A DNA stretch of 64,000 bases, taken from contig JAWCPB010000001.1 in NCBI GenBank assembly GCA_038870455.1, positions 21,449 through 85,448 on the forward strand, written 5' to 3'. Below, piece by piece: positions 2,832-58,493 of the stretch. Made by a program: the position numbers and the translations under genes. The stretch's first letter is position 1; each line of letters starts with the position of its first letter. The DNA comes from Candidatus Micrarchaeia archaeon (lineage in GTDB: Archaea > Micrarchaeota > Micrarchaeia > Burarchaeales > JACRGF01). Below the pieces are notes generated by a model, which was not told the DNA's origin, did no database searches, and saw nothing but the letters and a program-made list of their open reading frames with translations.

Positions 2832-3191
2832 ATGGCAGCGGAAAAAAATCCTGCGAAAAAATCTTCCGGAAAAATTTCTGAGAAAGACGTGCTCGGCGCG
2901 CTGAAGGCAGTTATCGACCCCGAGATAGGCATTGACATCGTGGATCTGGGCCTCGTGTACGAAATTAAGATAGACGCGGAAAACAGCGTGCATGTGAAGA
3001 TGACTCTCACCACTCCCTTCTGCCCGCTGGGACCCATGATTCTCAACAACGCAGAGCGCGCCGTGCAGGGAATCAAGGGCGTGAAGAGCGCGAAAGTCGA
3101 GCTCGTGTTCGAGCCGCCTTGGACTCCGGACAGAATGAGCACGGAAGCAAAAAAATCGCTTGGCTTCACGCAGCCCGCGCAGACCCCTTAA
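2832..3191 (+). CDS. metal-sulfur cluster assembly factor (DUF59/SufT/PaaD family)
   Basis: VIDPEIGIDIVDLGLVY, MTLTTPFCP, FEPPWTPDRMS. ATG at 2832 preferred. Confidence 0.92.
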   Translation: MAAEKNPAKKSSGKISEKDVLGALKAVIDPEIGIDIVDLGLVYEIKIDAENSVHVKMTLTTPFCPLGPMILNNAERAVQGIKGVKSAKVELVFEPPWTPDRMSTEAKKSLGFTQPAQTP

Positions 3192-4498
3192 GTCACTCCA
3201 ATCTTCGCCATCGCGTTTCTCGGGTTCTCGTAGTAGGCCTGCGTGAATTCGCTGAGCTGCTTTATCTCGCGGATGCCCGCCCTGGCGAGCGCGCGCAGCA
3301 CCTTCACGCGCAGCGCAAGCTCGTCCATGACTTCCTTGGGCGAAATGCCCGCCGCGGACGCCAGGCGGTCCCTGTAAATCACGCTGGGATGTACATTCAC
3401 CATGCTGCCCGTGTGCGGGTCGAAGGAGCACAGGTCGCTGAGGAGAACTTTCTTCTCAATCCCCCCCGTCTCGGTCACCTGCCCGACCACTCGCCTCAGC
3501 CTGCCATTCACCCAATAGTGCCGCGTGACGATGAAAACATCGATGAGCGGAATGACCTCGGTCGGGACGCTCATGGGAACGTTTTCAAGGCGCATGACGG
3601 CCTCCCTCGCGCTGTTGGCGTGCAGCGTGCCCATGCAGATTTTTCCTATGTTCATGGCGGTCATGAGGTCGTTGGCCTCGTTTCCCCGCACTTCGCCGAC
3701 GATTATCCTGTTTGGGTGCATGCGCATGCTGTTTTTGACGAGGTCCTGCATGGTCAGCTCCTCGGTCGTCTCGAGCCGAGCGGTGTTCTCGTTCGCCTCG
3801 GTGTTCAGCTCGAGCGTGTCCTCGATGACCACGATCCTCTCGTTGGCGGGAAAGAAGGAAAACAGGGCGTTGAGCATCGTCGTCTTGCCAGAGCCGGGCA
3901 TTCCCGCGATGAGTATGTTGGCCGGCTTTATGCGCAGCCCGTCCGCGTACAGCCAGAACTGCGCGGCCAGCTCAACGCTCATGGTGTTGTTTTCGACCAG
4001 GTCGATGAGCGAGAGGGGCCTCTTGTTGAACTTCCTGATTGTAATCTGCGGCCCGAAGGGCGAGGCTATGACGTTCGCCCTGCTTCCCTCCGGCAGGTGG
4101 AAGTTGTTTATGTCGTTCAGCCTGTCTTTTCCTGAGAGCACGAGCAGGCGCTTTACAAACAGGTTGAGCTGTTCGAGTGTTCTGAATTTCCTGTCGGTCT
4201 TGACCATGCCTTCTTTCGTGGAGAACGTGTAGATGGGCTTGAGGCCGTTTATCATTATGTCCTCAATCTCCTCCCTTCTCATCAGGTCGTCGAGCTCCCC
4301 GTAGCTCAGCACGTTCCGGATGAGCGCGTTCTTCTTCTCCTCGCTGATTTTTCCATAAACTTCCCTGACGGCCTCGCCGACGATTCTCTCCTGCTCCTCC
4401 CTCGTCTGCACGAAGGAAAGCCTTCCCACGAGCTTTTCGAGCAGCCTCTCTTCCTTCTCCTCTTCCTCGGTTTTGCTTGTTTCAATCTCGAGCTTCAT
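3188..4498 (-). CDS. type II/IV secretion system traffic ATPase (VirB11/TadA/CpaF family)
   Basis: Walker A GMPGSGKT, Asp box IVVIEDTLEL, Walker B RIIVGEVRG, His box GTLHANS. Confidence 0.92.
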   Translation of the reverse strand: MKLEIETSKTEEEEKEERLLEKLVGRLSFVQTREEQERIVGEAVREVYGKISEEKKNALIRNVLSYGELDDLMRREEIEDIMINGLKPIYTFSTKEGMVKTDRKFRTLEQLNLFVKRLLVLSGKDRLNDINNFHLPEGSRANVIASPFGPQITIRKFNKRPLSLIDLVENNTMSVELAAQFWLYADGLRIKPANILIAGMPGSGKTTMLNALFSFFPANERIVVIEDTLELNTEANENTARLETTEELTMQDLVKNSMRMHPNRIIVGEVRGNEANDLMTAMNIGKICMGTLHANSAREAVMRLENVPMSVPTEVIPLIDVFIVTRHYWVNGRLRRVVGQVTETGGIEKKVLLSDLCSFDPHTGSMVNVHPSVIYRDRLASAAGISPKEVMDELALRVKVLRALARAGIREIKQLSEFTQAYYENPRNAMAKIGVT

Positions 4499-4519
4499 GC
4501 GACTCTCCTCGCGTGCAGT

Positions 4520-5548
4520 CTATATTAATCTAATCAGCCCCTGGGCGATCTCGGCGACGTTCGCGCCCAGCAGGTCGGATAGCTGCTTCACCGCAGTGAA
4601 TGTTACGGTCAGCGCCATGAGTGGGTATATGTAGGCTTCCATGAACATGAAGGGGATGAGCCTGCCCACAGTGGTAAGGTAGGCTATTATTCCAGTGTTT
4701 TTTACCTTCCATATAAAACTCAGCTGCGCGATGCCTTCCTGCGTTGCACACTGCTCCCTCAGCGCCTCCACATTGTACTCCACGCAGCTCAGCAGGTCGT
4801 GCTGGGCCGCCACCGATAATATGAGCGCATAGCTGAAGGGATACACCAGATACATGCCGATGGCCAGCCCCATGAGGAAGGCGCCCGCCCCCCTTGTGTA
4901 AGGCAGCACGCGCAGCACAACGCCGAGGGGCAGGAATATCGTAAACATGGTGTCCGCGACAAAGTTGAGAAGTTGCCTCTGGAAATAGTTAGCGATGAGC
5001 AACCACGTCGAAAGCTGGGCTATCTGATGGGCAATGTTGGAAGGATAGGAGAAGGGCCAGCCCGTGACGGTGTGCACGCCATAGCTCGACAGCGTCACAC
5101 TCGCCATTGTATCCACGACCAGCGCAATGCGCAGCGCCGTGACATAATAACGCCTGAGGCAGTCCAGCGTGCTGTTGAGATAAAAGTGGGTGAGGCTGAA
5201 CGGATTGTCGGGTTGGATGACTCCCGGGGGTATGACCGACAACACTGGGTTATTGACAGCCAGCTCGCGCGTAGTGTTTGCCACGCCGGTGGAGATGAGG
5301 CCGGTGAAGGCGATGAGGCCGAACACGAGCATGGCGCTGGCCATCGCCTGCAGGAATTCACTCCGCGCCCACTTTTTTGCTTCGGGCAGGTCAAAGATGA
5401 CTGAGACCATGTAGGCGAGCGCCACAAGAAATATGGATGTGAGCACAGCCAGCGCGGCGGCCTGCTGCCACACCAGCCCGGCCCCAGTCGTCCAGGCCGT
5501 CGTGACCGCAGCCTGCGTTGCCTGCCCGAAATCCGCCTGCAACATCAT
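4520..5548 (-). CDS. polytopic membrane protein, tandem paralog 6 (CedA/VirB6-like)
   Basis: Shared motifs KKWARSEFLQ, LPLGVVLRVLPYTRGAGAFLMGLAIGMYLVYP and C-terminal QLSDLLG...GLIRLI. Confidence 0.8.
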   Translation of the reverse strand: MMLQADFGQATQAAVTTAWTTGAGLVWQQAAALAVLTSIFLVALAYMVSVIFDLPEAKKWARSEFLQAMASAMLVFGLIAFTGLISTGVANTTRELAVNNPVLSVIPPGVIQPDNPFSLTHFYLNSTLDCLRRYYVTALRIALVVDTMASVTLSSYGVHTVTGWPFSYPSNIAHQIAQLSTWLLIANYFQRQLLNFVADTMFTIFLPLGVVLRVLPYTRGAGAFLMGLAIGMYLVYPFSYALILSVAAQHDLLSCVEYNVEALREQCATQEGIAQLSFIWKVKNTGIIAYLTTVGRLIPFMFMEAYIYPLMALTVTFTAVKQLSDLLGANVAEIAQGLIRLI

Positions 5549-6963
5549 ATCATCCTCGTGAGGTTGGACACATCCACCTCCTCCCCAAAGAACCGCGAGA
5601 GGTCGCGCGCGATGGTTACAAGCAGGATGAAATTAAAAGCCGGCAGCAGAATGGCCCCAATGAGAATATAAGAGGCCACCCGGATAAGCCCAAAGATCGC
5701 GTATGTGCCGCCCACCAGCGCCAGCAGCGTGCCGCCCAGCGCGCCCTTGAGCAAAGCCATTCCACCCAGCCTGCCTATCGCCGTCATCGATGTCAGCACG
5801 GGCGCCAGGTAGGCTACAAGGACTGCCCATACCGTATGCCCAATAATGGCGAGCATTCCCAGCGCGTCCTCTTCGCTCACCGACCAAGCAGACCGAGGCA
5901 CCTTGCAGGACGTGCACACGCCGCCCTCACATTCTCCTGAGAAACAATCGCTGCCCGCGTCACATGCATCGCCAGGATAGCCGAGCTCAAGACATCTGTT
6001 CGGCTGGTTTGGGTCGAACCTTCCAGAACAGCACTCCTGCGCCGTGCTGGCTTCTCCCGCAAAAATACATGGGGGGCAACTCCCATCTGCATCGCATGTC
6101 AGGCCACCACAGCACTCGGTCGTCGAGTAGGGCCTGCACCTGTACTGGGAGGAGAGGGCGCCCATCACGTCATTTGTGGCATCGGCAATCGCCAGCATGT
6201 TTATTCCGAGCAGGATTGGATAGAACACGAACAGCGCCACGGCAATACCCATGAGCGCGCCACCGAATCCGCGCGTGAAGCTGAAGCACCTCAGCACAAC
6301 ACCCACGGGCAGCACGATGTTGAACATGGATACGAGGATGAACTTGAGTATCTCGGCCTGCACGAGGTTGGTTATCCAGGCGATTGTAAAGGACTGCAGC
6401 ATGAGGTTGAGCCCGCTCTCGAGCGCCGAGAGCCCGGCCATGGGCTGGACGCTGACGCCATATCCGCCGGGCTGCATGCCGCTCGCATAGCTCGTGGCGA
6501 TTGCCACGCGCCACTGCAGCACAAAGGCGTGCAACCATCCAGTTATTATTTTTTCATTCAGCCACCTCACATACTCAAAGGCATAGTCATACAGGTTCGG
6601 CGTTGTGCCGGCGGGCATGCCGACGAGGTTTGGGTCGAATCCGAAAAGCGCCGGAAAGCTCGGGCTGCACAGCACGCCCACGGCCAGCACGAGGTTGGCC
6701 ACGATGACCAGGCTCGCCGCCGTTTGGTAAAACTCGTTCTTCGCCCACGTCGCCGCGCCCGCGATGCCCAGCACGGTTGCTCCCATGTACGCGAGCACAA
6801 GGATGAAGAAGGAGAGCAGCGCGCCCAGCGTGGCCCAGCCGGCCCACGAGCCCCAGCTCGCCGTTATGCCGCACGCGTACGCGGCGCTCGTTGAGATGGG
6901 TGGGGATATGCTCACACACCCCGCCAGCGCGAATGCGCCCAGCACAACAAACATCCTGTTCAT
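5545..6963 (-). CDS. polytopic membrane protein, tandem paralog 5, with lipobox and Cys-rich insert
   Basis: ALAGC lipobox, TWAKNEFYQ, LPVGVVLRCFSFTRGFGGALMGIAV, a Cys-rich loop and C-terminal DLSRFFGEEVDVSNLTRMI. Confidence 0.8.
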   Translation of the reverse strand: MNRMFVVLGAFALAGCVSISPPISTSAAYACGITASWGSWAGWATLGALLSFFILVLAYMGATVLGIAGAATWAKNEFYQTAASLVIVANLVLAVGVLCSPSFPALFGFDPNLVGMPAGTTPNLYDYAFEYVRWLNEKIITGWLHAFVLQWRVAIATSYASGMQPGGYGVSVQPMAGLSALESGLNLMLQSFTIAWITNLVQAEILKFILVSMFNIVLPVGVVLRCFSFTRGFGGALMGIAVALFVFYPILLGINMLAIADATNDVMGALSSQYRCRPYSTTECCGGLTCDADGSCPPCIFAGEASTAQECCSGRFDPNQPNRCLELGYPGDACDAGSDCFSGECEGGVCTSCKVPRSAWSVSEEDALGMLAIIGHTVWAVLVAYLAPVLTSMTAIGRLGGMALLKGALGGTLLALVGGTYAIFGLIRVASYILIGAILLPAFNFILLVTIARDLSRFFGEEVDVSNLTRMI

Positions 6964-6967
6964 GTCA

Positions 6968-8170
6968 TCACACTATCTTGGAGAGCGCTTGCAGATTGAC
7001 GTCGGCTCCCAAAATATTTGCCAGTCCTCTTATCGCCGTGAAGGTGATGAGCAGCTGGAGGGCAGGCATGACAAATCCCAGCACGACTGTCATGTAAACA
7101 AAATAGCCAATGAGCATGATGAGAATGACGGTCAGCGCAGGAATCAGCTTTCCCGTGGGCAGCAGGAAGAGCAGAAAGAACACCTCCCCAAGATAGACAA
7201 AACCGCTCGGATTGAGCAGTGTGGACACGGCGTTCACCAGATGCTCGCGCATTGGCTCAGTGATTCTCTCAGCCACATCGAGTGCGGTGCAGCTCGGCGG
7301 AAGCGGCGCGCCGAAGCAGTACGCCCTTGCCATGTGCGCCTTCAGAAATTCGAACGACATGATGTATGTGAGCGGCCACACCACATAGAACCCCACGGCG
7401 ATGGCGATGAGCGCGCCGCCCGCGCTGCGCGTGAATGGGAACGTCCGCAAAAGAATCCCGACGGGAAGAAAGATCGGCATCATGGTGTCACGGACAAACT
7501 TGAGAAAAACCTGCTGCCCTATGATGCTGGCCAGCGCGAGTCCCTGCCCATTAAGCACTATGGCGAGCGCATCCAGGATTGGGCGCAGCGCCACGCCCGG
7601 CTGTATGGTTATGCCCACACGCATGGGCGCGATGGAGACGGTCGAGGAGGCGAGCACCCCAAATGCTATGTTCATGCCGTTGAAAATGATGTAAAATACT
7701 ATCACTATCCTTTGCGCGATGGCGAGAAATTGCTCGGCAACCTGGAATGCATCGTTGGCGGATACGGTGAGGCCCGCCGAAACCCTCTCCAGGTACCATG
7801 GCAGGTAAAACAGCGGGACGAAAACCTGATCGATGAAGCTGATTATGACGAACATCGCGCCAACGAAAATCGCGGTGGCGACGAGCTGGTACAGCTCGTT
7901 CTTTGCCCATACAAGCAAGGAGGGCATGCCGAAGCCGAACGCCAGCATGAACATCACAGCGACAACAAAAGACGAGAGCAGCAGGGCGATCATCGTTGGG
8001 CCATACCAGTTCACTCTCGTCTCGCACGTTCCCGTCTCGGTGAGGTAGGTGCCCGGGCAGCATCCACCTGGCCCGGGCGGCGCCCCCGCGCCCGTGCACC
8101 GCTGTATCGTGCCGAGGCAGCCAGACAAGAGTATGAGCCCGACCAGCGCGAGCGCCCACGCCCTCATCAT
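6968..8170 (-). CDS. polytopic membrane protein, tandem paralog 4
   Basis: LLSGC lipobox, VWAKNELYQ, LPVGILLRTFPFTRSAGGALIAIAVGFYVVWP, GLANILGADVNLQALSKIV. Confidence 0.8.
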   Translation of the reverse strand: MMRAWALALVGLILLSGCLGTIQRCTGAGAPPGPGGCCPGTYLTETGTCETRVNWYGPTMIALLLSSFVVAVMFMLAFGFGMPSLLVWAKNELYQLVATAIFVGAMFVIISFIDQVFVPLFYLPWYLERVSAGLTVSANDAFQVAEQFLAIAQRIVIVFYIIFNGMNIAFGVLASSTVSIAPMRVGITIQPGVALRPILDALAIVLNGQGLALASIIGQQVFLKFVRDTMMPIFLPVGILLRTFPFTRSAGGALIAIAVGFYVVWPLTYIMSFEFLKAHMARAYCFGAPLPPSCTALDVAERITEPMREHLVNAVSTLLNPSGFVYLGEVFFLLFLLPTGKLIPALTVILIMLIGYFVYMTVVLGFVMPALQLLITFTAIRGLANILGADVNLQALSKIV

Positions 8171-9240
8171 ATCAACCTCGTTAGCCCGGCGATCTCAATG
8201 TCGCCGCCGAGATTCTGCGAGAGTATCTTCACAAAAGATATCGTGGTGATGAGGCTCACAAACGGCACGAAGGTGGCATAGATAAGGATTTTGGCCGTTT
8301 TCTCAAACACGCCCTCGTCACCGATGAGCCAGCTTCCACCGGTGAGCGTGCCGGTAATGGCATCCCATAGCCCGAAGTTTTCGGGCTTGTGCGGCACAAG
8401 ACTCTTGCCCAAACCCGTGCCTTGCGCGCTCGTGTATGCCTCCTCCAACGCGCTCGGGTCGATGATGAGCACGTATGTTTTGGCCGTGGTGGCGCCCACC
8501 ACGGCGTGAGCCAGCAGATAGACAATGGGTAGCACGAAATAGACGCCTATGGCCACCGCCATGAGCAGTCCCCCGAGCCTTCGCGTCATGAAGAACGAGC
8601 GCAGCACAATGCCGAGCGCCAGTAGCGTCGGATACAGCGAGAACATCGTCAGATCGAAAAAGACCTCAACGGCCTTCATGACTATCATGACCTTGGTGAT
8701 GAGGTCAAACGTGGTGTTGAGGCTGTCGGTGATGACATGAAAACCTGCGAGCGGGGTGAACATGAAGTTGAGCCACGGTGCAACCAGCCCCTCCCAGCCC
8801 ACGGACATCGATGCCAGCATGAGCAGCCATGAGTTCGTGCGCAGGATGAGTTTGTTCATCTCCCTCAGGTTGGAATACATCGCAGTCGTGTAGTTGCGGG
8901 CCAGCAGGATGTGGCATCCAGTTCCCGTGCAGCCCACATCGGCCGCCAGCGCGGCATCCAAGCTCGTCAGCAGCCCGACGAGCGCGGCCACGATGACGAG
9001 GCTGGCGATTGCCTGGTACAGCTCGTTCTTGCCCCACGTCTTGAGGTGAGCGATGTTGAAACCGAAGCCCACCGCATAGGCTAGTGCTGTCAGCATCAGC
9101 ATGATGAACGCGAGCGTGAGCGCCTCGGCCCGCCAGTCCCACGGCGTGCCGCCCCACAGCGTGGTGATTGGCTTTCCCCCGAGCGTCACACAGCCCGACA
9201 GCAGGAGCAGGGCAAGCACGGCCACAAGCACTTTTTTCAT
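8167..9240 (-). CDS. polytopic membrane protein, tandem paralog 3
   Basis: LLSGC lipobox, TWGKNELYQ, LGIVLRSFFMTRRLGGLLMAVAIGVYFVLP, ILSQNLGGDIEIAGLTRLI. Confidence 0.8.
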   Translation of the reverse strand: MKKVLVAVLALLLLSGCVTLGGKPITTLWGGTPWDWRAEALTLAFIMLMLTALAYAVGFGFNIAHLKTWGKNELYQAIASLVIVAALVGLLTSLDAALAADVGCTGTGCHILLARNYTTAMYSNLREMNKLILRTNSWLLMLASMSVGWEGLVAPWLNFMFTPLAGFHVITDSLNTTFDLITKVMIVMKAVEVFFDLTMFSLYPTLLALGIVLRSFFMTRRLGGLLMAVAIGVYFVLPIVYLLAHAVVGATTAKTYVLIIDPSALEEAYTSAQGTGLGKSLVPHKPENFGLWDAITGTLTGGSWLIGDEGVFEKTAKILIYATFVPFVSLITTISFVKILSQNLGGDIEIAGLTRLI

Positions 9241-9244
9241 CGCA

Positions 9245-10183
9245 TCATCTACCCAGCTTGTGTATGATGACTTTTACGGTTGCCTTGATGAATGTAGTGG
9301 TGATCACCATGCTCAGCGCGGGCAGGAAGACCGCCTGGGGAATGACATGGCTGATGGTCAGAAACGCCTTGCACTGCCTGCGCGGATCAAAATAGCTGAA
9401 AATCCCGAAACGGCTCACATCACCCGGGTTGGCAGGCGTGCCCGGATCGAGCGGCACGCTGCACAGCCCGAAGAGTCCCAGCTTTGCGCTCGGGTCGTTG
9501 ATGTCGCTCCAGATCACATCGGCGACCATGGCGTTCATCACATAAGTGAGCGGAAACACCACGTAGAAGCCAAAGGCTGCTGCCATGAGGAACGCGCCCG
9601 CATCCCTGGTGAAGGAGATGCCTCTCAGCAGAATGCCCGCGGGCAGCACGATTTGGAACATGGTGGCCTGGATGAACTGCAACAGCACCTGCTGCAACAG
9701 CAGGCTTGAGAGAAGGGGCCCGAGGATGTTCTCGAGCAAGTTGATGTTGTTGGCAAGTCCCTTTAGCCCGGCGAGCGGCGCATAGCTGAATCCCCACGCC
9801 GTGGGTCCTATCTGCACCGCGTACTGCCCGATGACATTCGCTTCGTACGCCAACGCAAACAGCTCCATCATGGTGGGCACGGCCTGCGTCCACACCAGCT
9901 CGGTGAGATACTTGTCCGCTATGTCAAACGGATTGCCTCCGGCGAGCTGCAGCGAGAGCTGGCAGGCCAGGCTCGAGAAAAACGCCGCGTTGGCCAGCAG
10001 GAAAAGCGTCAGAAGGACTTGGAAGAACTCCTCCTTCGCCCACGCCTGCCAGCCGGGCCTTGCAAACAGCGGGGCCACCATGTACACCCCGCCGACAAAC
10101 ATGAACACGATGAGCATGGCTACGGCAACGGTGTCGCCAATTCCCGGCAGGGGAGCGCAATACGAGAGAGTTGCGGCAGGCAT
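9245..10183 (-). CDS. polytopic membrane protein, tandem paralog 2
   Basis: AWAKEEFFQ, LPAGILLRGISFTRDAGAFLMAAAFGFYVVFP. Start moved to ATG 10183 (or GTG 10189), next to the upstream stop. Confidence 0.78.
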   Translation of the reverse strand: MPAATLSYCAPLPGIGDTVAVAMLIVFMFVGGVYMVAPLFARPGWQAWAKEEFFQVLLTLFLLANAAFFSSLACQLSLQLAGGNPFDIADKYLTELVWTQAVPTMMELFALAYEANVIGQYAVQIGPTAWGFSYAPLAGLKGLANNINLLENILGPLLSSLLLQQVLLQFIQATMFQIVLPAGILLRGISFTRDAGAFLMAAAFGFYVVFPLTYVMNAMVADVIWSDINDPSAKLGLFGLCSVPLDPGTPANPGDVSRFGIFSYFDPRRQCKAFLTISHVIPQAVFLPALSMVITTTFIKATVKVIIHKLGR

Positions 10184-10185
10184 GC

Positions 10186-11871
10186 TCACACCAACTTGGT
10201 CATCCCAGCCAGCTGCGTCTCTCCACCGAGCGAGCCTGACAACGAGCGGAAGAATGTTATGACGATTATGATGTCGACTACGGTCAGCACAGTCACCACA
10301 AGCAGCTTTCTCACCACAATGGGCAGCGCCCACTCGTCTGGAACCAACCAGGTAAAGGTCGGATTATCGGTGAGGCCGGCGTTGGGGCACAGGGCCGGCA
10401 CGCTGCCTTTGCACGATGAACATGGCTGCTGTGCCGTGTTGGCATCGCACGTGATGTAGTCATACGCAGCGTACACATAATACGTGGGCCAAAGGCTCTG
10501 GAAAGAGCCAGAGCCCACCGCCCCAAGTAGGCTAACCAGTGGCGAGCCCGCCACCACCCCAACGCCCGTGATGCCGGCGAAAAGCAGCTGCCCGCCCACC
10601 GATTTCCACACCTCTCCCGCCCGCTCGTACTCCCGCCTCAGCCAGCACATGACCTGATACCATTTGCACGCGGGCTTCACCGTGACATTGAGGCTGGCCT
10701 CGGCCATGTCCTGGCAATAACCACGCGGGTCACACCCGCCGTAAGACGTGCCATCGGGCCTAACCACTACAGGGCATCCTTCGCTGCAGGGCGTGGCGTT
10801 TATCGTTGTCACCACAACCCCGTACTCAAAAAGACCCTCGCCCGGATTGCTCACGGGAAAGTTAACGGGCACGCCAGCGGCATAAGCCCCTTCACCGAGC
10901 CATACGAAATCCGTAGACGCGCCCTCCTTCCACTCTCTGTACCACACATCATAAGTGCCATTGGGCGCCTGGATGAGAAAAGTGAGGTTGAAATAGCCGG
11001 TCCCGCCGACAGTGCTGAGGGGCGAGAAAAAGGCAATCTTACCAATGCGTCCGAGGTCGCTTTCGACAATCCTCCACTCCGGCGGGATGTCGCCAGCCGC
11101 GCTGTACTGCGCCACAACATCTCTGTCATACTCATAGATGCCCTTATTGAGGGCGAGCGTGAGCGGAAACACGACATACCCCGATATGGCGAGCGCGATG
11201 ATGGTCGAGCCAAGCTTTCGCGTCAGACTGAACGTCCTGAGTATCAGGCCGAATGGCAGGAAAAACGTGAAGAACTGCTCGTATATAAACTCCAGCAGCG
11301 CTTGCTGGGCCATGAGATTGACGATGGTGAGCGCGGCGGCGTCGGCGATTTTTACAATCATCCCGTTCACCATCGTCAGCCCCACCAGCGGGCTGATGCC
11401 CACGTTGGGCATCGTTGTGCCGATGGGAATCCCAAAAAGCTGCGGATAGAGCACGGTGCCCATTGTACCGAGCGTGCCTATGCCGGCATCGAGCGTCAGC
11501 AGGCGGGTATAAACGCGCGTCAGGTCGTTCAGCGTCTCGCTCAGATAAGCATAGCCGAGGCCGATGTGGCTGTAGCCACCCGTCATGTCTGACACAATTG
11601 TGTTAAGCACGGTCAGCGAGGAGAAGACAAGGCCCACCATGAGCGCGCTCACCGCCGCTTCGGCGAGCTCGTTCTTTGCCCATGCCTGCAGCTCGGGCGA
11701 GCGAAGCAGCTCGGACAGCATGTACGCAATTGCCACGAACAGGAACGAGATGGCAACTGCCGTGAGGGCGATCGAAAACCAAAACGCCTCGCCTCCCCAC
11801 GTTGTCTGTATCGACGTTGTCACATTGAGCAGGAACTGCTCGGGCGGCGCGGTCGGGGAAGGCAGGGTCAT
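10186..11871 (-). CDS. polytopic membrane protein, tandem paralog 1, with large extracellular insert
   Basis: AWAKNELAE, LPFGLILRTFSLTRKLGSTIIALAISGYVVFP, SLSGSLGGETQLAGMTKLV. Start moved to ATG 11871 because the longer ORF overlaps leuS. Confidence 0.8.
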   Translation of the reverse strand: MTLPSPTAPPEQFLLNVTTSIQTTWGGEAFWFSIALTAVAISFLFVAIAYMLSELLRSPELQAWAKNELAEAAVSALMVGLVFSSLTVLNTIVSDMTGGYSHIGLGYAYLSETLNDLTRVYTRLLTLDAGIGTLGTMGTVLYPQLFGIPIGTTMPNVGISPLVGLTMVNGMIVKIADAAALTIVNLMAQQALLEFIYEQFFTFFLPFGLILRTFSLTRKLGSTIIALAISGYVVFPLTLALNKGIYEYDRDVVAQYSAAGDIPPEWRIVESDLGRIGKIAFFSPLSTVGGTGYFNLTFLIQAPNGTYDVWYREWKEGASTDFVWLGEGAYAAGVPVNFPVSNPGEGLFEYGVVVTTINATPCSEGCPVVVRPDGTSYGGCDPRGYCQDMAEASLNVTVKPACKWYQVMCWLRREYERAGEVWKSVGGQLLFAGITGVGVVAGSPLVSLLGAVGSGSFQSLWPTYYVYAAYDYITCDANTAQQPCSSCKGSVPALCPNAGLTDNPTFTWLVPDEWALPIVVRKLLVVTVLTVVDIIIVITFFRSLSGSLGGETQLAGMTKLV

Positions 11872-11899: not shown

Positions 11900-11907
11900 T
11901 TTAAATA
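11900..11907. promoter_or_regulatory. putative bidirectional TATA box between the membrane-protein operon and leuS
   Basis: TTTAAATA in a 57-nt divergent gap, about 25-30 nt from both start codons. Confidence 0.5.
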
Positions 11908-58370: not shown

Positions 58371-58493
58371 AGCCCCGTCGTCTAGTGGTCAAGGATAGCG
58401 GGCTCTGGAAAACCTTTCGCCGGCGAACCGGCAAAAGCGTTTACGGAAAAACGGTGAAACCCGCGGACATCGGTTCGAATCCGGTCGGGGCTA
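58371..58493 (+). tRNA. tRNA-Gln(CTG) with a 50-nt intron (58409-58458) at canonical position 37/38
   Basis: Acceptor AGCCCCG/CGGGGCT+A (A1-U72), D-arm TAGTGGTCAAGGA, anticodon stem GCGGG/CCCGC, loop CT-CTG-G|A, T-loop TTCGAAT. CCA not encoded. Confidence 0.92.

Follow-up and report, generated by a model that had tools for sequence, protein, structure and literature searches.

Little is known of the means by which DPANN archaea hold on to their hosts and take up host material, and a cluster of membrane-protein genes in a Candidatus Micrarchaeia archaeon raises the question of what kind of machine such a cell might build. The stretch of DNA analysed here (the window; 64,000 nucleotides, C1:21449-85448) comes from a 1.04-Mb genome in 51 contigs that is 90% complete, and the close homologues of its proteins carry the source names Candidatus Micrarchaeia or Micrarchaeota archaeon. 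On the minus strand lie seven tightly packed genes, six encoding paralogous membrane proteins (4520-11871) and the seventh an ATPase (3188-4498). A first-pass annotation of the window had read them as an operon of CedA/VirB6-like proteins with a VirB11-family ATPase. Our analysis leans towards the view that the six genes are ancient, non-redundant VirB6/CedA-like paralogs which would form one heteromeric platform or stalk of a conjugation-related machine. Most likely, this machine is chromosomal, of a type IV secretion or Ced/Ted-like kind, and kept across most Micrarchaeota.

Six paralogs in a fixed order

The six paralog genes are consecutive and overlap or abut, as first described: each junction is either a 4-nucleotide overlap or a gap of 2–4 nucleotides, and a 21-nucleotide spacer separates the last paralog from the ATPase gene. 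In order of array position, and all on the minus strand, they are P6 (position p1, first transcribed; 10186..11871, 561 amino acids by its open reading frame (ORF) and the alignment), P5 (p2; 9245..10183, 312 amino acids), P4 (p3; 8167..9240, 357 amino acids), P3 (p4; 6968..8170, 400 amino acids), P2 (p5; 5545..6963, 472 amino acids) and P1 (p6, last of the six; 4520..5548, 342 amino acids). P1 is the minimal paralog and was the one modelled with AlphaFold2 (AF2). The length of P5 is counted from an ATG at 10183, 2 nucleotides past the P6 stop codon, which is the likely start; the ORF list begins the gene at a GTG at 10333, overlapping P6.

Over their whole length the six proteins are 26–27% identical, with 13 invariant columns, and the three common motifs of the first-pass annotation are all seen in the alignment. 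The first, W[AG][KR]xE[LF]xQ/E, follows transmembrane helix 1 (TM1), while the second, LPxGxxLRxFxFTRxxG, lies mid-protein. The third is a C-terminal tail, LSxxLGxxxxxxLTRLI, which is absent from P5, the second paralog, where the first-pass annotation had noted a truncation. None of the six matched a Pfam or NCBIfam family at E≤1, and 40 scanned homologues gave no match to any relevant family. Searched against 1.84 billion sequences, a profile of the six paralogs matched 2985 representative proteins at a threshold of E≤1e-3, and at E≤1e-30 it still matched 528. Thus, the motif pattern of the paralogs is not a product of chance.

We counted the members of this family in 151 sampled genomes of the phylum, a tally that includes one unpublished genome (G029). 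The family was present in 135 of them, usually with 8–18 matches each. We additionally fetched 20 loci from 18 genomes; these were chosen from the best-scoring clustered matches and are not a random sample. Exactly six tandem members were found in 19 of the 20, counting as one a gene that is split into two ORFs in L036. The single exception, L046, is a single-copy locus. Six members also make up a second array, L058, in genome G039, which belongs to the same genus.

We then built a tree of 121 paralog sequences over 216 core columns. Sequences grouped by array position and not by genome, with supports of 0.77–0.985. The position clades hold 19/21 sequences for p1 (P6; support 0.90), 20/20 for p2 (P5; 0.77), 20/20 for p3 (P4; 0.975), 14/20 for p4 (P3; 0.887), 19/20 for p5 (P2; 0.954) and 20/20 for p6 (P1; 0.985). 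Exceptions came from L038, at positions 1, 4 and 5, and from some swaps between positions 4 and 5. Because the clades follow position, the six-fold duplication and the gene order are older than most of the class. A fixed number, a fixed order and an old duplication are together what would be expected of six non-redundant subunits of one complex, and the earlier idea of a hetero-oligomeric channel would agree with six position-specific clades. A complex prediction for P3, P4 and P5 from ortholog alignments returned a score of 0.00, which is evidence neither way.

The C-terminal tail also follows position. It was reached in the profile at positions 1, 3, 4 and 5 in all cases and at position 6 in 13/20, while at position 2 it was not reached in 19/20, the P5 of the window being the one counted as reaching it. 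With position 2 tail-less and the others tail-bearing, the array shows a five-plus-one arrangement reminiscent of the VirB6 base, a pentamer.

Rows from the ESM Atlas name archaeal clusters only, mostly Microcaldota. In a nearby Micrarchaeota cluster there, 23% of the members bear Pfam CedA1 (score 0.90), which we take as a lead only.

Fold of the paralogs and a separate pilin and VirB4 module

The AF2 model of P1 (pLDDT 86.1, pTM 0.80) consists entirely of helices; about seven are long, and five of these are hydrophobic. R388 VirB6 is likewise described as having seven long helices, five hydrophobic (PMC9259494). An exhaustive VIA-align comparison against 48,161 chains gave only two near-full-length matches, R388 TrwI/VirB6, with 229 of 261 residues aligned at Z 8.6, and Legionella DotA, with 287 aligned at Z 8.4; the other top rows were hairpins with 50–136 aligned residues. 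When the 957 chains matched by Foldseek were realigned, ranks 1–3 were all TrwI/VirB6 (Z 9.5, 9.2 and 9.0), with 234–254 residues aligned of 260–272 and a root-mean-square deviation (rmsd) of 6.1–6.7. The fold evidence for VirB6 kinship is suggestive and not decisive. Additionally, hhalign of a 9-sequence profile, built from pilins that neighbour the array or co-occur with it, against the hairpin formed by TM1, the WAKxE motif and TM2 gave a probability of 78.5% (E 1.7e-5, 44 columns). The same relationship of hairpin to pilin is reported for CedA with CedA1 and for VirB6 with VirB2 (PMC9905601).

Hydropathy and the AF2 model both give five membrane helices, with two short loops of net positive charge and inserts that are Cys-rich and acidic. 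The predicted topology places the N-terminus outside and has five membrane helices; a helical domain and the variable inserts would be extracellular, and the amphipathic tail would lie in the cytoplasm. The two short positive loops would be cytoplasmic and would bear the WAKNE and FTR motifs. The topology of VirB6 has an external N-terminus, a C-terminus in the cytoplasm and a large extracytoplasmic loop in the centre.

The inserts differ between paralogs. P6 has an acidic insert of ~190 amino acids with 6 Cys between TM4 and TM5, predicted to be extracellular, and keeps its C-terminal tail. P2 has a 139-amino-acid insert with 14 Cys, also between TM4 and TM5, and P3 has a Cys-rich N-terminal segment. 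Lipobox-like N-termini were seen in P2 (LAGC), P3 (LLSGC) and P4 (LLSGC, with a weak LPAM_1 match at E 0.021). We rejected the lipobox as a position-conserved feature, since it occurs in only 0–4 of 19–20 sequences per array position, a weak count given that starts were called automatically.

Gene order in order-level relatives connects the array to a pilin and a VirB4-like ATPase. In a sister family (f2), VirB4-like genes lie directly 3' of the array in 6/6 loci and consist of one or two genes for proteins of ~275 amino acids and one for a HerA/AAA_10/TraG-P-loop ATPase of ~512 amino acids; one locus, L035, is cut off past the ~275-amino-acid genes. On the other side, 5' of the array, one or two genes for pilin-like proteins of ~118 amino acids were found in 5/6 loci (L034 being the exception). 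In L046, where there is a single copy, a pilin-like gene lies upstream and, downstream, a gene for a 262-amino-acid protein from the cluster of the 270-amino-acid protein described below. Pfam matches of the pilin-like proteins of f2 and L046 are sub-threshold.

No VirB4/CedB gene lies in the window, as had been stated, nor is there a VirB4-like gene elsewhere on its contig, and the genome search that was proposed for VirB4/HerA-like and VirB2-like genes found both on another contig (C3). There they form a pilin/VirB4 module without an array. The module pilin matches PF18895 (T4SS_pilin) at 29.6 bits against a cut-off of 26.6, and it is accompanied by a 270-amino-acid protein, a 522-amino-acid ATPase and two further proteins, one a membrane protein of 119 amino acids and the other of 253 amino acids. 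Among NCBIfam models, the ATPase scored highest with CedD (73.6 bits) and CedB (70 bits), ahead of models for VirB4-like proteins, HerA and TraC; the Ced cut-offs of 600–700 bits were not reached. The model of the 270-amino-acid protein (pLDDT 84.1) resembles the VirB4 N-terminal domain by fold. Its best ten Foldseek rows were all R388 TrwK/VirB4 (E 1.9e-3 to 3.1e-3), with the next row at E 0.11, and VIA-align placed VirB4 first (Z 9.1, rmsd 3.4, 161 residues aligned, within residues 219-380 of the chain). Taken with the 522-amino-acid ATPase, this fold indicates that VirB4 is split in this system.

If the array belongs with such a module, the two should occur in the same genomes, as expected of a CedA/TedA-type protein and a CedB/VirB4-like ATPase. 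The VirB4-like ATPase was found in 134/151 genomes, against 135/151 for the array family, both tallies including G029. The identical 16 genomes lack both, and one genome (G145, 89% complete) has the array only. The best full-length copies listed outside the genus are 55–78% identical to the VirB4-like ATPase of this genome.

Two observations concern the module itself. In genome G006, the VirB4/CedB-like ATPase gene is broken up by an intein that includes a LAGLIDADG endonuclease domain (L030:1485-4628; Intein_splicing 1.7e-20, LAGLIDADG_3 8.7e-24). Genes for PMT-type glycosyltransferases lie just 5' of the pilin genes on C3 (L057:3613-7703) and in f2 loci (L031:3378-4913), and on C3 a GT2-methyltransferase fusion gene is also 5' of the pilin gene. 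These neighbours suggest a possible glycosylation of the pilin or of the machine.

The operon ATPase and the proposed machine

The seventh gene of the operon (3188..4498, minus strand) encodes a 436-amino-acid ATPase of the T2SSE superfamily, with a PF00437 score of 124 bits against a cut-off of 24.9. Its Walker A (residue 199, GMPGSGKTT), Asp box (222), Walker B (265) and His box (290) are all intact, in agreement with the first reading. Its assignment to VirB11 stood only as far as the superfamily. NCBIfam scores were 218.5 bits for FlaI, 163.2 for TadA and 127.1 for VirB11 (TIGR02788, cut-off 249.95), all under their cut-offs, and the nearest PDB chains were afGspE (2oap, 198 bits), CpaF (174) and FlaI (138), with VirB11 HP0525 at 84. 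The operon ATPase is therefore a T2SSE of TadA/CpaF/FlaI type and no VirB11 ortholog.

Six T2SSE ATPases are encoded in this genome, and the operon ATPase is 27–32% identical to the other five. Each of those five has T2SSF genes nearby (10 T2SSF matches, on C3, C7, C8 and C35). No T2SSF/TadC platform gene was found on the array contig, which bears out the earlier remark that no TadB/TadC gene lies beside the ATPase, and no T2SSF match was found in the six paralogs. In a tree of 28 ATPases rooted on R388 VirB11, the array-linked ATPases (those of the window, G039 and G116) formed a long-branched clade with support 1.0. Its sister (0.986) is a clade of shorter ATPases that includes the C35 copy, a gene with T2SSF matches nearby. 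At 436 amino acids, the operon ATPase is shorter than its relatives in the tree, which have 458–647.

The first-pass annotation had tied its proposal to a conserved linkage of array and ATPase in related genomes. This linkage was not found: an ATPase lies 3' of the array only in the window, L027 and L028, all of one family (f1), and in 0/17 other arrays with a readable downstream flank, that of L029 running off its contig. Its long branch and family-only linkage indicate that the ATPase is a family-specific recruit from pilus ATPases and no conserved machine part.

From these parts we propose the following machine. In R388, a VirB6 pentamer is the base where VirB2 assembles (PMC9259494), and by analogy the array products would form a platform that takes pilin subunits out of the membrane and lifts them into a pilus or conduit. 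The other parts would be those of the second contig, namely the VirB2-type pilin, the split VirB4 (270 and 522 amino acids) and the small membrane proteins, with the split VirB4 acting as a VirB4-like hexamer that would power the lifting of pilin. The operon ATPase, a fast-evolving offshoot seen only in this family, would probably serve as an accessory, VirB11-like second motor. The cargo could be DNA or protein, or the machine could mediate host-cell contact.

Several results weigh against this machine. The fold matches of P1 stay at Z 8.4–9.5 with rmsd of 6–9 Å, and thus fall below the level of Z ~13 at which all-helical models can still match by arrangement alone. Foldseek of the P1 model against the PDB returned nothing at E≤1e-3, with TrwI/VirB6 at ranks 9 and 15 (E 0.37–0.48); this result does not speak against families missing from the VIA-align lists, PilC/T2SSF and CedA among them. 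By sequence, PF04610 (VirB6/TrbL) gave no match at E≤1 in any of the six paralogs, the family profile matched no PDB chain at E≤10, and hhalign of a 110-sequence family profile with a 34-sequence TrwI/VirB6 profile gave a probability of 0.18%. The pilin-hairpin match is only 78.5%, and membrane helices can align through composition. The co-occurrence tracks families: f10, f14, f16, f17, f19 and most of f11 lack both array and VirB4-like ATPase, so that few independent events lie behind it. In the window's own genome, the array (C1) is unlinked to the pilin/VirB4 module (C3). As to the operon ATPase, five other genomes yielded no ortholog with more than 35% identity; its position 3' of the array is confined to family f1, and its role in the machine is argued from operon position only.

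The first-pass description of the paralogs as CedA/VirB6-like therefore holds in part. The TrwI fold match, the pilin hairpin, the synteny of f2 and the co-occurrence speak for it, while no link by sequence to PF04610/VirB6 was found. We regard the paralog family as probably a distant relative of VirB6/CedA that works like it, and not as a PF04610 member.

A bolder version of the conjugation-related machine goes further. Five tail-bearing subunits and one tail-less subunit would form a pseudo-symmetric stalk, echoing the VirB6 base under a five-start pilus. The whole would be an essential organelle throughout the phylum, a conduit for DNA, lipids or proteins from hosts (perhaps in other DPANN too), in which Cys-rich ectodomains and giant proteins set host specificity and a recruited pilus ATPase acts as a second motor here. 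We offer this version tentatively and think it doubtful as a whole.

A different solution starts from the operon ATPase: in this family it and the paralogs would be a self-contained new type IV filament-like machine, in which the paralogs would stand in for the missing TadB/TadC/PilC platform and have no need of the pilin/VirB4 module. In favour of this solution, the ATPase falls in the TadA/CpaF/FlaI/afGspE group and branches off a pilus-type clade. The other five T2SSE ATPases of the genome all have T2SSF nearby and this one does not, and its gene begins only 21 nucleotides 3' of the array, a tight coupling. We nevertheless consider this solution unlikely, since 17 of the 20 other arrays, including L058 of the same genus, have no T2SSE ATPase (the flank of L029 is off contig) and the core function of the array therefore cannot depend on it. 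Furthermore, the paralogs match no T2SSF-like family, and across genomes the array tracks the VirB4-like ATPase.

Equally improbable, in our judgement, is a lineage-specific envelope or surface complex, such as an S-layer anchor, an adhesion device or a display for host recognition, that carries out no secretion or DNA transfer and has T4SS-like neighbours through inherited gene order. Such a complex would fit proteins that belong by sequence to no known family and have large, variable, Cys-rich inserts, and it would fit the giant Pfam-less proteins that adjoin arrays (one cluster in 9 loci, another in 4, plus L058). In most of the families sampled, moreover, the array is not adjacent to VirB4-like genes. 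It accounts poorly for VirB6 as the best fold match with near-full coverage, for the resemblance of the hairpin to pilin, for the single-copy L046 gene, which has a pilin-like gene on one side and a member of the VirB4-N-terminal-domain-like cluster on the other, and for the 16 genomes that lack array and VirB4-like ATPase alike.

Lastly, we rejected as very improbable the reading of the paralogs as solute or lipid transporter or channel subunits unrelated to pili: although they are polytopic helical proteins, and some of the weaker rows align in part with membrane domains of ABC transporters (ABCD1, Z 7.5–8.2, 95–160 residues), these transporter alignments cover less than half of the model at a high rmsd of 8–15 Å, no transporter family was matched by sequence, and the operon has no ABC ATPase or substrate-binding protein.

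Known systems and the surroundings of the array

The nearest counterparts of the proposed conjugation-related machine are the Ced and Ted systems, archaeal, chromosomal and 'domesticated' relatives of type IV secretion systems (T4SS) that combine a VirB2-like pilin with a polytopic protein resembling VirB6 and an ATPase resembling VirB4 (PMC9905601). The likeness to CedA and CedE, and to TedA of the Ted system of Thermoproteales, is drawn from published descriptions. Both systems have a polytopic protein with a pilin-like N-terminus, to which the hairpin match of the paralogs would correspond. In the Ced system of Sulfolobales, CedE is a paralog of the VirB6-like CedA, CedD is a paralog of CedB, and function depends on Ups pili (PMC11868833). 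Ced thus resembles the Micrarchaeota system in having a second VirB6-like paralog, in spreading VirB4-like functions over two proteins (CedB and CedD) and in its association with T2SSE-driven pili (PMC11868833), and the Micrarchaeota VirB4-like ATPase scores best with the CedD and CedB models. The differences are that six fixed-order paralogs are found here versus one or two; that VirB4 is split otherwise, into an N-terminal-domain-like protein and one ATPase; that Ced model scores of 70–74 bits lie far under the cut-offs; and that the host belongs to DPANN and not to Thermoproteota, with a T2SSE ATPase inside the operon in the window's family.

The T4SS of plasmid R388 provides the best structural match, TrwI/VirB6 (Z 9.0–9.5), in which the alignment covers nearly all of either protein. 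Both P1 and TrwI have 342 amino acids, the P1 model agrees with VirB6 in having seven long helices, five of them hydrophobic, and pilin and VirB4 genes adjoin the array in relatives. In contrast, no sequence or profile similarity was found, and the homopentamer of VirB6 (PMC9259494) compares with six paralogs here, five of them tailed. R388 functions in a double-membrane bacterium with VirB7-10, and none of VirB7-10 was identified here.

Multiplied VirB6 genes are known from the T4SS of Rickettsiales. Rickettsiales VirB6 paralogs stand in tandem and number three to five. These genes are duplicated and diverged, some of them with extensions of very large size, and belong to host-dependent cells whose genomes are reduced (PMC7648143, PMC2653234), so that the two cases are alike in having multiple diverged VirB6-family paralogs in cells of this kind. 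They differ in that the Rickettsiales proteins are bacterial and recognisable members of PF04610, whereas the paralog family here has no PF04610 match.

A parallel by lifestyle is found in Patescibacteria, where VirB4 of a chromosomal T4SS occurs in 2,417/3,035 assemblies with VirB2-like pilins nearby and virB6 is reported to be essential for growth in one cultured epibiont (PMC12102498). In both cases a conjugation-derived chromosomal system is kept in an ultra-small, host-dependent lineage, with the VirB4-like ATPase in 134/151 genomes here. The Patescibacteria system differs in being bacterial, of the monoderm MPF-FATA class, and in having a single VirB6. Finally, the operon ATPase shares the PF00437 core and the four boxes with the ATPases of type IV filaments and with VirB11; from the filament ATPases it differs in having no T2SSF partner gene, in its length of 436 amino acids, in its long branch and in its restriction to one family.

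We found no description of a T4SS or Ced-like system, or of the paralog family, in Micrarchaeota or DPANN in the literature searched, including text from PMC9905601, PMC12102498 and PMC13705601, supplements aside. If the proposal is true, a machine in about nine of ten sampled Micrarchaeota would give concrete targets for the question of host attachment and uptake: a motor with 55–78% identity across the best full-length copies listed, a VirB4 in two parts and six VirB6-like subunits that come as a fixed set. It would extend Ced/Ted-type domesticated conjugation beyond Thermoproteota, with the near-universal chromosomal T4SS of Patescibacteria (PMC12102498) as its counterpart. It would also be the first hetero-oligomeric VirB6 platform, and would bear on the symmetry of VirB6 relative to pilus and ATPase.

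Several features surround the array, in the window and in other families. Giant proteins of about 600 to >1800 amino acids, several of them cut by locus ends, adjoin arrays in other families (L029, L032, L033, L037, L038, L041, L042, L044, L045 and L058). Those scanned had no confident Pfam match. Members of one homologous cluster were seen in 9 loci, and those of another directly 3' of the array in 4. These giant proteins may be parts of the surface or of a tip.

Upstream of P6, a 57-nucleotide spacer separates the operon from a divergent LeuRS gene and holds a TATA-box-like TTTAAA (11900..11905, minus strand), 29–34 nucleotides 5' of the P6 start codon. Read from the sequence, this box is the probable promoter of the operon, with a leader that would be short or absent. 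A scan for bacterial sigma-70 promoters and intrinsic terminators gave counts close to those of shuffled sequence, these models not being applicable to archaea. The regions 5' of P6 (11872-11928) and 5' of the C3 pilin gene (L057:7640-7700) both have TTTAAA followed by a similar G-rich stretch; the two sequences are too short for a shared regulatory motif to be called. Four sequencing runs contain the stretch or part of it, all of DNA and from one hot-spring metagenome study, and no RNA run was listed.

Just 3' of the operon are two tandem ORFs on the minus strand (530-1603 and 1664-2734; 357 and 356 amino acids) that are FtsZ-like by eye. Homologues of these ORFs were found near the six-gene array in 5 places (the window, L027, L032, L037 and L039), which suggests an old conserved gene order. 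Between them and the ATPase, a small FeS_assembly_P gene (PF01883; 2811-3191, plus strand) runs convergent to the ATPase gene and ends at the operon end. Farther along the window, a 123-nucleotide Rfam tRNA match on the plus strand (58371-58493, 44.8 bits), which was not called by ARAGORN, is probably an intron-containing tRNA gene. The segment 22001-24000 has a G+C of 0.47, compared with about 0.56–0.63 in the rest of the window.

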